A stretch of 64,000 bases of DNA from Oligoflexia bacterium (GCA_963758495.1 CAVWVI010000001.1:288001-352000); one strand, 5' to 3'; counted from the stretch's first letter, positions 29,081 to 40,837 are shown. Numbers and translations: made by a program. The notes: generated by a model from the sequence alone, not told the origin.

Positions 29081-30352
29081 TCAAACGTAGTTACCTACTT
29101 TGATCTCTTTTTTTACATTTATACATGTTTCTCGTTTCAAACCAGACAACTTACGACTTGCAAATCTCTTGCGAGATGCACAAGGCATAGAGGCTCTCTG
29201 TCCACGAGCGTGATTTCCCCGTCGGCCACGGGTACAGTGAATCAGAATATTTCGAGAAGCATGAACATCTCTGTCCTCACGATGAGCACACTCTGAATTC
29301 ACACAGGAAAAAATCCGATCTTTTAAACTCAGGTTTTCATTTTTAGTTCGGCATTTACGACATTCTTTCGAAGAAGGGAAAAATCGCTCTGCATAAAGGA
29401 CTTTCCCGCCTCTTTGGGCTGTCTTATATTTAATTTGTCTTTTGAACTCATGAAAGGAGATATCTGACAAAGAACGAGCAAGCTTGTGGTTTTTAAGCAT
29501 GCCAGCGGTGTTCAGATCTTCAAGACAAACGATTCCGAATTGATTGGCAACTTGGGTCGTTGTTTTATGGATAAAATCCAGACGAACATTGACTATTTTC
29601 TGATGAACTTTTGCTACTTTTTTTGCTGCTTTCTTCCTCCTCTTACTCCCCAATGTTTTGCGATGCAAAGAACGATTCTCTCTTGCTAATTTCTTGAGAT
29701 GTTTTCTAAGTGACTTCGGACCCCGAAACTTCCTCCCAGTTGATAAAGTCAAATCTGTCTCAAGACCTAAATCGCCTGCAACTGACTGAAGAGGGTTTTT
29801 ACATTTACGGTGAGGAAGTGGGGTTTCAACTTGAATGGAAATAAACCAACGATCCGCATTCCTTCCAATGGTTGCTCCTAAGACCTTCCCAGAGAATCGT
29901 AATGACTCCACTAAAGAAACTTTTCCAATGTGAGGAAGGTCTACAAATTGATCCTGAACCGAAAACTGATCATTGGAAATATAGAAGGAATCCCTAGATT
30001 TCCCCTTCTTTTTAAATCGGGGTTGCTTCGTTTTACGAGATGTCTTCTTGTTCAAATCACGAAAGTAATTTGCCCAAGCTGCCCCTAAATCGGCTAAAGC
30101 CCCTTCAGGAGCGCATTTAGTGACCTCATACATCCATGGAAATTGCACTTCCTTGAGTGAGTTGAGCTTTTTCTTTAATGCCATCCAATTCGGCCGCTCT
30201 CCCTCTTGATACTGCTTCTTCCATTCTGCCAATCCCCAGTTATAAGAAAACCGCGCTACTCCGCATGCCTTTTGAAAATACAAGACCTGCTCCTCCGCAG
30301 GGAGCATCTCAATCTTATGTGCGATCTTATAGAGTAGGGTTTGTTCGGTCAT
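29081..30352 (-). CDS. tnpB: IS607-associated TnpB RNA-guided nuclease
   Basis: RFSYNW, GDLG, LEDL, zinc finger and DRDVHA; ATGA overlap with tnpA. Confidence 0.9.
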   Translation of the reverse strand: MTEQTLLYKIAHKIEMLPAEEQVLYFQKACGVARFSYNWGLAEWKKQYQEGERPNWMALKKKLNSLKEVQFPWMYEVTKCAPEGALADLGAAWANYFRDLNKKTSRKTKQPRFKKKGKSRDSFYISNDQFSVQDQFVDLPHIGKVSLVESLRFSGKVLGATIGRNADRWFISIQVETPLPHRKCKNPLQSVAGDLGLETDLTLSTGRKFRGPKSLRKHLKKLARENRSLHRKTLGSKRRKKAAKKVAKVHQKIVNVRLDFIHKTTTQVANQFGIVCLEDLNTAGMLKNHKLARSLSDISFHEFKRQIKYKTAQRGGKVLYAERFFPSSKECRKCRTKNENLSLKDRIFSCVNSECAHREDRDVHASRNILIHCTRGRRGNHARGQRASMPCASRKRFASRKLSGLKRETCINVKKEIKVGNYV

Positions 30353-30963
30353 TCCTTTTGTACAGCCATTTCTAAAATAGTCTTCTTGTATTTTCGAAGT
30401 CCATAAAGCCGCGATGAAAAGCAATGAATGATGGACATCAAATCTTTCGTCATCTCTTGTTCTGGAGAAAGGGATTCTTGATTCATGACTGCAATCTGAG
30501 TGCCATGAAGTTTGCAAAAATGCTCAAACCATTCAAACCCAAATCGAACTAACCTATCTTTATGAGCCACAATGATCTCTGCGATCTCGCCCCGCTCAAC
30601 ACGATTCATGAGCTCAATAAAATTCTTGCGCTTGTAGTTTAAGCCTGAACCTATGTCTTCATATTTTTCATGGATGATTCTGCCCGAAGCAACACAAAAC
30701 TGCTCAACAGCTTTTTTTTGAGACATGAGGTCCGGTTTTTGGGCACTTCCCGAAACGCGCACATAACTTACGTTTATCCTTTGTTTGTCTTTCTGTCCCA
30801 CTACTTGAATATAATCTTCATGGGTATAGTATCGTCTATTCGTGGGTGTTCGCTTTGCTTGAAGAATCTTTTCACGATCCCATCGTTGGAGAGTGCCGGT
30901 CGAACGACCTATGAGTAAACCAAATTGTTTTGGGCTGTATATTTTTGTATTCAAAGCAGGCAT
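30349..30963 (-). CDS. tnpA: IS607 serine recombinase transposase
   Basis: N-terminal MerR-like HTH (TLQRWD...RRYY), YVRVS catalytic Ser, DIGSG, DRLVRFG. Confidence 0.9.
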   Translation of the reverse strand: MPALNTKIYSPKQFGLLIGRSTGTLQRWDREKILQAKRTPTNRRYYTHEDYIQVVGQKDKQRINVSYVRVSGSAQKPDLMSQKKAVEQFCVASGRIIHEKYEDIGSGLNYKRKNFIELMNRVERGEIAEIIVAHKDRLVRFGFEWFEHFCKLHGTQIAVMNQESLSPEQEMTKDLMSIIHCFSSRLYGLRKYKKTILEMAVQKE

Positions 30964-35397: not shown

Positions 35398-35614
35398 AAA
35401 ATAAAAATGAATCAATCAAAGCTGAGGTAGGCCGCCATTTTTTTTGCCCCGTAAGTCTCGATTGCTCTCATTCTATTATGCATTGAACACTTTAATTCAA
35501 GATTCTCCACAGTGTTCGGTCCGCCGAAACCAAATGGAATGATGTGGTCTTGACGTCCTCCCCTGCCTAAAGGCTGGCCTTGCGGCCACCTGCCCAACGC
35601 AGGAGGGGATTCCC

Positions 35615-38600
35615 TTAAGCGACTTTCGTCGCTCTTAGCGATTCACGCCCGAATCGGAGAATATTTCTAGCTGCATTAACGTCACGATCGTGATGAGCAT
35701 GACATTCGCTGCAAGTCCACTCTCTTACCCCAAGACCACTTAGTCCGCTCGGACCTGTTTTTGTATGACAGTTCGAGCAAGTGACCGTGGAGGAACTTTC
35801 ATTCACTTCGTAGTAGTTTCCTGAATGCCTAATGGCTTTATACTTCAAGAGATTTCGGATGATTCCGAACGAAGCGTCTGCTGAACTTTTTCCACTTCCT
35901 GCTTGTGTGAACTTTCCGCTCACATTACCAACATACAAAGTGTTGGCTTTTCTTACTGCTTTTGTAGTCTCCTTATGTACATAGTCTTTCCGTTTGTTTT
36001 TAATCTTCGCGTGAATCTTCTTAACTCGTTTCTTTTTATTGGCTCGCTGCGCTGTAGCAAGCTCATCTTCGAGTTTTCTAAATTCACTGTTATTTTTTAT
36101 GAAACTTCCATCACTGAATGTCATTGAAGTCTTTAGGCCGGGATCTCCACCTAATTCTTCTATAGGGTGCTTGTGATCTATTTTTGAGACTTCACAAGCA
36201 AGATTCACGTACCAACGACCCTGAGCGTCTTGAGAAAATGAACCAGACAAGATTCGACCTTCAATCGGACGAGAGAGCCATATCTTGTAGCTATGCCCAA
36301 GGTAACAAACCCTGTGACCGTCCACTTGAATTGAATTCGCCTTGAATGGAATCCAGCCCAATGAACGCCTTGAGCCCCTAGATGTGCGCCAACGGAGCTT
36401 CCTTTTTTTGAACTGGATTCTCCGAATTACGTATTCTTCACAGATTGCCTGCACAGTTACACTATTAAGTCCAAGCTCTTGAGAGGAGCCCGAAGTCAGA
36501 TTTTTTAGGTCTATGGCTGAAAGAAATTCTCCATGATTTCGAATGGCATTGAAAGAAGTATCGTTGTCGAGTAAGGGGTAAACCTTACGGTTTACCCCTC
36601 CTCTAAGAACGCATCGTGCGAGTTTCCCCGCAATACGCTCAAGCCTCTCTGATACCCTTTGCAGGATACGGTTCACGTTGATGGAGTATTTCGTGACAGA
36701 TGGAATGAACTAATTCAAGATTGCTCATTTTATTACTGCCACCTAAACTCTTTTTGACCTTGTGGTGGACTGCCCACCCGGATTTAAAGAAAATAGGCTT
36801 TTTGCAATAAGAACAAGCTTTTTCTTGTAAGCTGTAGAGGTACATGCGGGACTTGATCGCTTGAGAACCGAGAGACATTTTTTGCTTCTGTCGATCCTCA
36901 AAGTATCGATCCCAGTCCGGATCATATGGGTTGGCTGCTGCTCTGACCTTGATATGACGGCTAATCTTAGTAGCCGCCATGTTATTTAGTTCAACGTATT
37001 CCCAGGTCCCATCCTCTGCTTTTTTCTTCCCGAAGAAAACCCAGTTCCGATCTCCATTAGTTCGGAAGTACTTTTGTTTAATCCATTTCCTGGATTTAAA
37101 GGGATGCCTTCGGTTCGACCATTTCCACAGAGCATGATAAATACTCATCGCCATGCGCTGGAAAGTTTTTGCACTACATACGTGACGATAATAATTGGCC
37201 CAACCCCTAATAAGTGGGTTGAGAAGATCAATTACAAGCGTCGGTTTTGCCTGCTTATTCTTTCGGATTATTTCCCGTATTTTATCTGACACCCTCTTCA
37301 CATTTGCTTTAGCTGGCTTTGTGATGAGTGTGCCTTTATACTTACGGAAATTAAAACCTAGGAAATCAAATCCATCCTCTATATGTGTGATCTTAGTTTT
37401 CTCTTTCGATAGCTCGAGACCACGTTCCTTCAGGAAATCTACGATCATTGGTTTGACCGATTGTTCGAGAATTTCCTTCGAGGCGCCAGTGACAATAAAG
37501 TCATCCGCATATTTGACGATGTTCACCTTGTATTTCATTATGATTCTTGGATTTGCTCTGAAGGTCGCATATAAACGACGCTCTAGGCCATCTAAGGTCA
37601 TATTTGCTATTACAGGGGATGCGATTCCCCCCTGAGGGGTCCCTTCGTTCGTTGGGTTCAGGATTTGATTTTCTATATATCCGGCTTTCAACCATCCTTT
37701 TAGAATCTTCTTTTCCATTGGAATATTATTTTCCAACCAGGTGTGATTAATTTTATCAAAGCAGGATTTAATATCTCCTTCTAAGATCCAACGTGCACTT
37801 CCCGGTTTCCCTAATGCCAGAAAACACTGTTCCATCGCGTCCTGAGTAGAACGCTCTTTCCTGAATCCGTATGAATTAGGATCAGCAGTGCTTTCTGCGA
37901 CAGGGTCCAGTCCCATGAGATAGAGAGCTTGCATCGCCCTGCATTTCATAGTTGGAATCGAAATAGGCCTTTGTCGGCCATCTTTCTTTGGAATATAGAT
38001 TCTTCGGAGTGGCTGAGGTCGATATCCACGCTGTCGAAGCGAGTATACTGCTCGCATCTTTTCCTCGGGTGTTTTCCATATTTTCTGGTCAACACCTGGG
38101 GTATTTCTTCCATCATTTTCGGTCACTCTGCGCACTGCCAAAAGCTTTGCGTTTTGTGATCGAGTTAGTAGGTATTGGAGCGATTTAACTCGTCCCCACC
38201 TACCTTCTTTCGTTGCCTTTACGATACGTGCCTGAAGACGACTCACTTCTTGGATTGCCGAATCCCAGCTAGTGGATTCCCATTCTTTGATAAAGTGAGA
38301 GGCCGCACCAGTAGATAGTGTTTTTGAATTGCCATTTACCGTCATCTGCTTTGCCTCCTTTATCGCTTTGTCAGGTTATTTCGTAATGAGAGACCCGGTA
38401 GAAGTCAGCTCGCTTTCACGCCGGTAATTAAACCGTATTCGATTCGTTATAAATCGACTTTCGCTTTCTCTACCATCCTTTACCTACATGCCTATGGGCT
38501 CGTCTTGCGACTCACTTTCCGTTTAAGGAGGCATGTAGGCTTACCGAGTTTCGTTGTTAAAACATCAATCGATTTAGGCTCGCCCTATTCACCGACAGCA

Positions 38601-39069
38601 TTGGTCCATGATGAGAGATACAGCACAGCTCTCATTCCCAGCTGCTTGCCTTTTGGCTCAAGTCTATCAGCACCTTTGACTTGTTATGGATTACGGCGTT
38701 TATCAGGCATTCACTTATGTTAGCCCTGTCGACTATCCTAGCCCTGATCCGCTTTAGTGCTAGCAGAATTGATCTGGACTCACGTCCAAATCTAGGTAAT
38801 TGACCCAGGATACATTGTCAGAGTGCTTCATACGGATTGTTACCTCTCCGCATTTACTCCTAGGATACTTGCTATGGAAGGCAAGGTTACATCGCCTCGC
38901 AGGCTTATAACAATTTTAGCAACGACTTTCCTCGTCGCACGCAGTAATTCCACACAAAATTAACAGCACGAGCAAGCTGGTCGAGTCTGTTTAATTCTGA
39001 GGCGTCCTTGATCCTATAGCGTAAGGTTGTTGTCACCTTGTTAGGATCTTTTTCCTTTCTCTTAGCCAT
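35615..39069 (-). CDS. tnpB: TnpB split by a group II intron (exon 1 39069-38941, exon 2 36565-35615; ~359 aa spliced)
   Basis: Phase-0 join ...NFVWNYC|NDTSFNAI...; GGDPGLK, zinc finger CSNC/CSEC, HDRDVNAARN. Confidence 0.9.
36566..38940 (-). mobile_element. Group II intron (2375 nt, IIB/chloroplast-like class)
   Basis: 5' end GTGCG at 38940. Domain V GAGCGTATTGCGGGGAAACTCGCACGATGCGTTC at 36640-36607. Domain VI hairpin GGGGTAAACC..GGTTTACCCC with bulged A. 3' end AC at 36566. Confidence 0.93.
36639..38345 (-). CDS. ltrA: Group II intron reverse transcriptase/maturase with C-terminal HNH endonuclease
   Basis: TPGVD, SYGFR, GDIKSCFD, GTPQGG, YADD, GWANYY, CxxC...HH...N...H; GGAGG RBS. Confidence 0.95.
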   Translation of the reverse strand: MTVNGNSKTLSTGAASHFIKEWESTSWDSAIQEVSRLQARIVKATKEGRWGRVKSLQYLLTRSQNAKLLAVRRVTENDGRNTPGVDQKIWKTPEEKMRAVYSLRQRGYRPQPLRRIYIPKKDGRQRPISIPTMKCRAMQALYLMGLDPVAESTADPNSYGFRKERSTQDAMEQCFLALGKPGSARWILEGDIKSCFDKINHTWLENNIPMEKKILKGWLKAGYIENQILNPTNEGTPQGGIASPVIANMTLDGLERRLYATFRANPRIIMKYKVNIVKYADDFIVTGASKEILEQSVKPMIVDFLKERGLELSKEKTKITHIEDGFDFLGFNFRKYKGTLITKPAKANVKRVSDKIREIIRKNKQAKPTLVIDLLNPLIRGWANYYRHVCSAKTFQRMAMSIYHALWKWSNRRHPFKSRKWIKQKYFRTNGDRNWVFFGKKKAEDGTWEYVELNNMAATKISRHIKVRAAANPYDPDWDRYFEDRQKQKMSLGSQAIKSRMYLYSLQEKACSYCKKPIFFKSGWAVHHKVKKSLGGSNKMSNLELVHSICHEILHQREPYPAKGIREA

Positions 39070-39120
39070 TTTTCGCTTGGGCTTTATCATCAACATTTGC
39101 ACTTACGATTACATTGGTCT

Positions 39121-39594
39121 ATGACAGTGTCAATGAGAAATATTAAAAGCCCAAAGAATAGTCCTGAGGCTATAGCTAAGCGAAAAACACCAGGAATTAG
39201 GCATGGACGCCATTGCGTATTTCTGATGCATGTGCATTTAGTATTTGTAGCCAAATATCGCAAAAAATTATTTACGAAAGAAATTTTAAATTTCATGGAA
39301 GAGATATTTAGAGACGTTTGCAAGGACTTCGATGCTGAGCTAAAAGAATTCAATGGTGAAAGTGACCACGTTCATCTCTTAATTAACTACCCATCCAAGA
39401 TTGCAGTCTCAAACTTAGTTAATAGCCTGAAAGGGGTTTCATCTCGACATGTACGGAAAAAGCAATTTCCTTCACTCCACAAATATATTTGGATGGATGC
39501 TCTTTGGACCCCAAGCTATTTTGCTGGATCATGTGGCGGTGCTCCTCTGGAAGTCATCAAACAATACATTGAACAACAGAAACCACCACACTAA
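39121..39594 (+). CDS. tnpA: IS200/IS605 Y1 HUH transposase
   Basis: HLVFVAKYR, ESDHVHLL (HUH), LKGVSS, KQYIEQQ. Start codon uncertain. Confidence 0.92.
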   Translation: MTVSMRNIKSPKNSPEAIAKRKTPGIRHGRHCVFLMHVHLVFVAKYRKKLFTKEILNFMEEIFRDVCKDFDAELKEFNGESDHVHLLINYPSKIAVSNLVNSLKGVSSRHVRKKQFPSLHKYIWMDALWTPSYFAGSCGGAPLEVIKQYIEQQKPPH

Positions 39595-40837
39595 AGTGCG
39601 GACGCCTTATATCCCCGGGATGAACCCCGGGGTTTTACGGCGCGTGTGATAATGAATTGCATGCGAAGATCCGCATTTTCGACCACTCGTGGGATCGACA
39701 TACTGACATTTTCCTTCATCACGATAATAAACAGTACGTTTCACTTCGGCTGGAATATATCGCGTCGGTGCTTGAGTTGGAGCTTCATCAGCCGTAGCTA
39801 TAGGCTCTCCCACGACTACCGTAGCACTTTGATTCGTCTTCACTTTTTCTCCGACGCCGGAGCGGACCTCACTTAGTTTGTGCGTAGACTTAGGCTCCGA
39901 CTTTTGAGGGAGTTTAGGCTTGAGTTTCTCCAGGCTTAACTTTGCCATTTCAGTGAACAATTCACTCAGCGTGAGATGAGGGTATTTGTTTGCGAGGAGG
40001 CCCCTCACTTCTTCCAATTGATCCAGCAGCGTCTGATCCGCCACAAAACGAACTTCAGAATGGGTCGGAGTCACAGACTTGATCTGGTCAGGCTTTTGAA
40101 TCGCAAGCGGCTGTGAAGAGTGTTGTATCAGTTCCCTTTCCGCTTCCCGACTGGATTTATTCATTAAATTTTCGAGAATCTCTTTTTTCTTCTCCAAATC
40201 AATTGGCTTTTTCAACTCCGCTTCCGTTTGAAATAGTCTTTGTGCCATCGCCGCGTTTGAAAGAGTGATTGTTCCTTTTTCAATTTCGTTTTCGACTTCT
40301 GGCATTTCAGTCAATAATATCATCGCACTTATTCTTCTCTGAGCCGCCCCGTCTGAAAACCCCAATTCCCGAGTGACATATTTAAAAAGCGACCGATAAC
40401 CCAGCGTCGCAAAAAGACGCCTCCGATAGACTTCCTGAAGATGATGCAGAACTTCTAAAGTAATTTTTCTCTCCTCTTCTGCGAGAGATTTTATTTTCCG
40501 TAAGAGTTCTTCATTATTGAGTTTGCGAATTGAATATGTCATCGATATACTTTCTGTGTAAATTTTCTTTCAATCACCCTAACACAGGTTTTAAAACTCA
40601 AAAATTACGCACGAGGATTGGGTATTGCTGATTTTTTAATATTCTTTATAGCCCTGCGCCAAACTCCGCCAGGAAAGGCTCCTGAAGTCATAAGAAAGGC
40701 TAAAAAAAGCATTTTAGAAAGGTTTGGCTATTGTCTAAATTGCATTTGAGATTTTGTTCAAAACAGTGTCAAGCCCGAAATCGAATCTTGGTAACTAAAG
40801 TAGCTTTTTTCTCCGACGCCGGAGTTTGCCTTTAGCA

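Follow-up and report, generated by a model that had tools for sequence, protein, structure and literature searches.

A group IIB retro-intron within the conserved WNYC motif of tnpB in an IS605-type transposon

Results and Discussion

Features of the locus

The analyzed window comprises 64 kb of an Oligoflexia bacterium and contains a tnpB gene that is divided into two exons by a group II intron (Table 1). The gene is part of an IS605-type element extending from 39648 to 35550, with hairpins at both ends. The element has the defining features of the IS605 group: its Y1 tnpA is encoded divergently from tnpB, the hairpins are subterminal, the target is not duplicated, and the left end is preceded by a short target motif. 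This motif, TTAT, and the sequence ...GACGTCAA at the right end are both shared with an intron-free relative (L174; TnpA 78% and TnpB 77% identity). The tnpA frame opens with a TTG codon, and the true start may lie downstream of it.

If the IS is taken out, the parts of the host gene on both sides form one frame of 343 aa (...HAIHY/DHIIP...; here and below, a slash marks a joint). About ten paralogues of the split gene (30-50% identity) occur in the genome and make up one family with it. The assembly holds a single full copy of the intron-bearing IS, and neither an intron-free allele of this tnpB nor a second copy of the intron was found in it. An identical 93-bp piece of the right end lies elsewhere (L006 2424-2516, G000:C3:1437424-1437516) beside another flank and is cut off by an IS110. 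This piece corresponds to the 3' part of the omega-RNA scaffold; it is a trace of a second insertion and could supply another guide. A second, intron-free element of the IS607 type, consisting of a serine recombinase gene and tnpB, is located 5 kb away at 29081-30963 of the window. A promoter scan upstream of the interrupted tnpB returned one site, which equals the chance expectation.

Table 1. Positions of the features at the locus, counted from the first base of the window.
Feature	Position	Strand	Evidence and remarks
Host gene, 5' part	39649..40542	-	HNH-type motif at the break (read by eye; Pfam without match)
Likely TAM TTAT, last four bases of host 5' part	39652-39649	-	TTAT also before the L174 left end
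IS605 left end with subterminal hairpin	39595..39648	-	DNA hairpin of -13.5 kcal/mol; like the L174 left end
tnpA, Y1 (HUH) transposase	39097..39594	+	PF01797, E 2e-42; NF033573 above cut-off; 78% identity to L174 TnpA
tnpB exon 1, 43 codons from ATG 39069 (alternative starts 39096, 39102)	38941..39069	-	WNYC end; IBS2 GTGGA, IBS1 TACTGC
Intron	36566..38940	-	Group II, IIB type, GTGCG...AC; Rfam, empty-site match
EBS2 UCCAU	38686..38690	-	5/5 pairs with exon positions -13 to -9 (GTGGA); covariation in relatives
EBS1 GCUGUA	38619..38624	-	5/6 pairs with UACUGC (one U-U mismatch)
EBS3 U (T38587)	38587..38587	-	Pairs with first exon 2 base A; 68/73 relatives complementary
Intron-encoded protein, 568 aa: RT (YADD), maturase, HNH endonuclease	36639..38345	-	Pfam, TIGR04416
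Intron domains V and VI (AGC triad, bulged branch A)	36566..36642	-	RF00029, fold z -7.2
tnpB exon 2, 316 codons: RuvC-I D, RuvC-II Glu to G with downstream E, zinc finger, RuvC-III D	35615..36565	-	NF040570 above cut-off
IS right end with predicted omega-RNA scaffold, ending ...GACGTCAA	35550..35660	-	Same end in L174 and L170; fold z -2.5
Host gene, 3' part; first 16-20 nt predicted guide	35412..35549	-	Guide position inferred from known IS605 layout

Structure of the intron

The intron has a length of 2375 nt. At its 5' splice junction (38941/38940), exon 1 ends with ...GGAATTACTGC and is followed by GTGCG, and the 3' junction (36566/36565) reads ...CTCGAC/AACGAT. Exon 1 measures 129 nt from the ATG at 39069, and the intron is thus inserted in phase 0 after codon 43, a number that depends on the chosen start, as the ATG at 39096 or the GTG at 39102 would give 52 or 54. 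Many relatives of this TnpB are 368-370 aa long. Removal of the intron yields a joined ORF of 359 aa with a terminal stop only, which is collinear with the intron-free relatives, exon 1 ending in W-N-Y-C and exon 2 starting with N-D-T-S. At the insertion point the relative L174 reads WNYC/NETSFN, and since this empty site matches, both intron boundaries were fixed without the use of intron models.

The Rfam scan of the window gave two group II models and nothing beyond them: RF02012 for domain I at 38886-38741 (76.7 bits, gathering threshold 34) and RF00029 for domains V and VI at 36642-36566 (53.9 bits, gathering threshold 40). The further hallmarks of group II introns are present as well, with a GUGYG start, an AY end, the catalytic triad in domain V, a domain VI with a bulged A seven bases from the intron 3' end, and an intact RT-maturase. 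The frame of the latter is uninterrupted, contains YADD in its translation, and matches RVT_N, RVT_1, GIIM, and HNH, all above the Pfam cut-offs, as well as the group II RT/maturase equivalog TIGR04416, also above cut-off. By its N-terminal motif, the encoded protein is a candidate member of class CL1. An HNH domain excludes classes C-F (PMC4424553).

An earlier note on this locus had described a complete phase 0 intron after codon 43 with intact YADD and HNH, and the Rfam and Pfam matches together with the joined ORF bear this description out. Its statement that full-length TnpB would come only from spliced RNA follows from the anatomy, that is, from the joined frame and the intron-free relatives. 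Likewise, the 3' omega-RNA region, which it considered untouched, was found in good order, with the tnpB 3' end and the TCAA of the right end (35553-35550) intact despite the intron. The distinction it drew from IStrons agrees with the exclusive presence of group II models in the window and with an intron that is inserted inside tnpB and not at the IS ends. The intron also explains a trap for gene calling, in that exon 2 was entered in the database as a 353-aa 'TnpB' (P0121) whose N-terminus is translated from the intron.

Predicted reading of the target by the intron RNA

The exon-binding sequences were evaluated by comparison. Intron ends were called in 158 related loci, 80 from genomes and 78 from metagenomes, of which 70 were dropped for lack of a callable 5' end or as duplicates, leaving 88 distinct relatives. 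The loop aligned with EBS1 pairs at five or more of six positions with its own exon end in 85 of the 89 introns (window intron plus relatives), compared to a mean of 34.5 and a maximum of 49 in 300 shufflings of the intron-exon pairs. For the EBS2 region, 5/5 pairing was found in 61/89 introns versus a shuffled mean of 11.7 and a maximum of 22. Here, the best register was searched in the real and in the shuffled sets, and the relatives are not independent of each other; the gap is wide. After a further 15 relatives had been left out, the base at the column of T38587 was the complement of the base that opens exon 2 in 68/73, with 41/73 for the next best column, which identifies it as EBS3. The candidates for EBS1 and EBS2 proposed in the earlier note lie where it placed them and covary with the exons of the relatives. 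Its proposed folding check returned the ATGAGAG/CTCTCAT stem around EBS1, though the 35-nt EBS1 hairpin on its own folds no better than its shuffles (z -0.05), and the support for the pairings is comparative. The predicted EBS1, EBS2, and EBS3 together with the endonuclease domain place the intron in subgroup IIB, for which exon recognition by these three elements is a published criterion (PMC4424553).

On the side of the target, the motif WNYCN occurs in 75 of the 108 TnpB homologues compared. Eight of ten intron-free loci would offer the intron a full set of partners (IBS1 5/6, IBS2 4-5/5, IBS3 A), while in the remaining two the site was not readable. Opposite the third positions of the Tyr and Cys codons, the EBS elements have G residues, and pairing is therefore kept when these codons change synonymously. 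EBS1 leaves one mismatch with any Cys codon, and the fit to WNYC is therefore good but imperfect; a single mismatch is common, as 34/89 introns pair at 5/6 in EBS1. In ISDra2 TnpB, the TAM-reading residue Y52 is described in the N-terminal helix region (PMC10097598). The WNYC motif would lie in this same region; the sequence alignment to the structure ended short of it.

The EBS1 mismatch and the single copy could also be taken as signs of a chance ectopic insertion, in which the real target would be another gene and retrotransposition into tnpB would have left the latter effectively dead. Against this speak the agreement of all three pairings with the present site (EBS2 5/5, EBS1 5/6, EBS3), the sense orientation and phase 0 of the insertion, and the result that the genome contains no other copy of the intron.

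Condition of the interrupted gene

The active site of the TnpB contains VGNVS, with Gly in place of the RuvC-II Glu, and a VNE motif, and the same pattern is found in most of the 108 homologues; this reading is based on motif counts in these homologues and on the alignment of one of them (P0122) to a solved TnpB. The replacement of the RuvC-II Glu with a compensating Glu is known as the rearranged active site RIIr-5 (PMC10691335), and the RIIr-5-like arrangement predicted here is a described active-site type and not damage. In comparison with five intron-free relatives, pN was far below pS in every segment of tnpB (0.04-0.21 versus 0.45-0.88). The gene has neither a stop nor a frameshift, and decay of tnpB was rejected.

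Residues 181-280, encoded within exon 2 (35615-36565), share 64% identity with the 30 homologues nearest to this TnpB, well below the median of 83% among these, and the whole protein departs from near-invariant columns 14 times (median of the homologues: 4). Both values would suit an insertion into a dying gene. However, the frame without stop or frameshift, the retained catalytic pattern of the clade, and the low pN argue against it, and we regard a chance insertion as very improbable. Because the rest of the protein is typical, the divergent residues are read as a likely recombined patch.

Silencing of TnpB in avoidance of self-targeting was considered separately and rejected, since the assembly has no intact site of TAM plus guide; it has only three sites with four mismatches, and the TAM is absent from these.

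Distribution of related introns

The search for close relatives of the intron-encoded protein covered several collections. At an E-value of 1e-40, the RT was found in none of 74 further genomes from the family, and ten related tnpB loci were likewise without a match to it. RT relatives above 58% identity were detected neither in genome contigs, where 80 of 163 loci were kept, nor in metagenome contigs, where the best 80 of 572 matches gave 78 loci; all RT matches in 1467 plasmid records stayed below 60% identity, and the best 120 of 7966 matches in the protein database showed 52-58%. In the RT tree, the protein sits on a long branch apart from other tnpB introns. The nearest RT relatives (48-58% identity) have changed their targets repeatedly, mostly toward motifs that are conserved in mobile genes, and the WNYC site is used by 0/88 related introns with a callable junction. 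An intron-derived N-terminus was found in none of the 108 TnpB homologues. The genome, plasmid, phage, and metagenome searches were samples, and their zeros hold for the records sampled.

Searches with junction patterns and sequences were carried out as well. Matches in viral contigs (L168, L169, L190) are put down to chance, with no RT or Rfam match in them. Among 400 other genomes of the phylum, the two junction matches in G310 fall in a continuous protease-like frame, and G310 contains no RT. The patterns were found in 0/401 genomes of another class. A blastn search with the 5' junction gave nothing in plasmids or phages, and a longer query gave only partial matches to intron RNA in plasmids. 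One DNA sequencing run had only short pieces in common with the locus and no joints.

Related introns in tnpB were found at 5 of the 158 loci, and these occupy three other sites. In L034, the intron follows YNW, one codon upstream of the site in the window; in L161, L162, and L166 it follows DLGIK at RuvC-I; and in L117 (1541-1665) it lies at the zinc-finger end, where the 3' junction only is available. The intron of L034 (3344-5767) has a copy of 89% identity in L195 (G426:C20), inserted after YNY. Both copies hit the same codon, in host tnpB genes that are 41% identical to each other. These two introns start with TTGCG and end with GC, and both lie in one Chloroflexia genome that has at least 29 tnpB matches. 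The three introns placed right after DLGIK, the catalytic motif of RuvC-I, form a small clade, and its sister group consists of introns inserted in other genes at a PGRK motif. In L117, the intron 3' end is followed by the last tnpB codons and a right end reading …GACGTCAA, the same end type as in the IS of the window.

The hosts of the 88 related junctions include at least 20 other group II introns, identified by motif, and also IS110, IS21, IS66, Tn3, and tnpB, identified by Pfam (the host of L104, for instance, is Tn3 by Pfam); 37 of the 88 carry no motif label.

A second tnpB intron occurs in this genome. It measures 2413 nt, is inserted in phase 0 after codon 134 of an IS607 tnpB, and encodes an RT with 35% identity to that of the window intron. 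The IS607 with this intron exists in two copies of 99.9% identity with different flanks (L001 6-4644, i.e., G000:C3:6-4644, and G000:C3:1301164-1305801), and the tnpB of one copy is frameshifted. The pair differs at one position in the intron and at five in the IS (Fisher p 0.11), and these values fit joint movement of IS and intron as well as separate homing of the intron into each copy.

Judged from these sequences, introns of several lineages do target tnpB motifs, and have done so repeatedly. The suggestion of the earlier note that the intron may target a conserved tnpB site holds in part: the conserved motif and the pairing at eight of ten empty loci support it, and the absence of the WNYC site from the 88 relatives does not favor a WNYC specialism. 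The comparison of close homologues which it had suggested met with none above 58% identity, and those at 48-58% sit elsewhere.

These data bear on the proposal of a stable partnership, according to which a WNYC-specialist intron lineage and the IS form a composite where splicing gates TnpB, TnpA spreads the pair, and TnpB retains it. Pairing that persists at the empty loci despite synonymous change would be expected of such a lineage. The related lineage specialized one codon upstream, in widely differing tnpB genes, and the two IS607 copies that both carry an intron can be cited in the same sense. However, no second intron was found at WNYC, neither among the 88 junctions nor by the pattern searches with their chance matches; no homologue bears an intron-derived N-terminus, the RT stands on its long branch, and the IS607 pair is equally explained by double homing, with one tnpB frameshifted. 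For the window intron itself, relatives at 58% identity or less are compatible with the existence of a WNYC-specialist lineage as well as with its nonexistence, and taken as a whole we consider the stable partnership unlikely. A similarly low probability is given to the related idea that the N-terminal W/Y-N-Y/W helix of TnpB is a recurrent hotspot used by at least two independent lineages (after WNYC here and after YN[WY] in the Chloroflexia genome), both of which would read the motif with tolerance for synonymous change, and that the IS is a working composite which is moved by TnpA and retained by spliced TnpB, and in which the splicing rate sets the nuclease dose. If true, the element would be a naturally occurring and testable case of an RNA-guided nuclease gated by splicing. 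It would also offer a living model for the insertion of an intron into tnpB, a step that has been proposed for how IscB/Cas9 acquired HNH.

Proposed mechanism

Our preferred explanation, with a probability of roughly 0.8, is that a selfish retro-intron of subgroup IIB homed into a conserved motif of tnpB, a dispensable mobile gene, and rides the IS605-type transposon, with TnpB probably reduced and not regulated. In its favor are the intact intron, the match of all three pairings to the present site, close tnpB relatives that are, as a rule, intron-free, and the location of most related introns in other mobile DNA. The intron RNA would read its target through pairing of EBS2, EBS1, and EBS3 with the DNA, and because this DNA encodes a conserved TnpB motif, many related tnpB genes should continue to offer the target. 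A precursor transcribed through tnpB would serve for production of the intron protein; protein-assisted splicing would then free the mobile intron, with the in-frame tnpB mRNA as a by-product. The IS could carry the intron as passive cargo, because TnpA and both IS ends are intact. With one intron-bearing IS copy in the assembly, homing and transport are hypothetical for this element.

The net effect on TnpB would most likely be a reduction without a regulated switch, and the omega-RNA, being 3' of exon 2, need not be affected. Reduced TnpB is expected because published introns residing in IS elements or plasmids splice poorly or lower the host mRNA: splicing of RmInt1 was measured at 0.07% (PMC3035460), and Ll.LtrB lowers its host mRNA (PMC6003770). 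These figures come from other intron classes, and efficiency differs between introns.

Comparison with known systems

The earlier note had presented the arrangement as a surprise. Site-specific group II introns in tnpB and their composite transposition were, however, already put in print by Kapitonov, Makarova, and Koonin in 2016 (PMC4810608, Suppl. Fig. S9), and the element is a further case of this known arrangement. In IS605-1_CC and IS605B-1_CC of the cyanobacterium Coleofasciculus chthonoplastes, group II RT-HNH introns of about 2.5 kb interrupt tnpB as well, though at the site EQQ/N (codons 50-51) and in three copies, whereas the present intron occupies WNYC in a single copy. The part of that report consulted contains neither a map of EBS-IBS pairs nor a splicing test; here, the EBS elements were mapped, and TnpB belongs to the type with a rearranged RuvC.

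RmInt1 in ISRm2011-2 of Sinorhizobium meliloti (PMC3035460, PMC8632793) also has its homing site in an IS gene that depends on splicing. That intron lacks the endonuclease domain, and its host gene encodes the transposase. The TeI3 family F4 introns in ISEL1 (IS200 family) of Thermosynechococcus elongatus occupy a conserved site in an IS200/IS605-family element, as in our case, but are ORF-less, unlike the window intron (PMC2882425). IStrons likewise combine an intron, TnpA, TnpB, and omega-RNA in one element; as described (bioRxiv 10.1101/2023.11.20.567912), the IS is surrounded by a group I intron, and there is competition between splicing and the omega-RNA at the 3' splice site. The present element, in contrast, has a group II intron with its own RT inside tnpB, 1 kb from the omega-RNA.

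Our literature searches, with most subscription journals outside their reach, yielded no paper on the WNYC site and no bench test of the TnpB output from an intron-bearing allele. The case leaves the knowledge of group II introns and of IS605 elements unchanged. Its value lies in a clean and fully resolved example, in which the ends of the IS and the TAM are defined together with the 5' and 3' splice sites and three pairings to the exons, and for which close relatives without the intron exist. It is a ready system for determining how much TnpB an intron-bearing IS provides and whether the intron is copied when TnpB drives homing.

Introns of most classes, namely those other than class C, are described as hiding in mobile elements (PMC7306698), and a tblastn search of this assembly gave five full-length group II introns, all of them inside IS elements. 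A third intron family in the genome (about 1.9 kb, RF02005) occupies the non-coding 3' end of an IS110; it has two copies and an interrupted RT frame. The loci concerned are L003, L004, and L006 (G000:C3:325000-332000, C4:21500-28500, and C3:1437511-1439219), and an empty allele is present as well.
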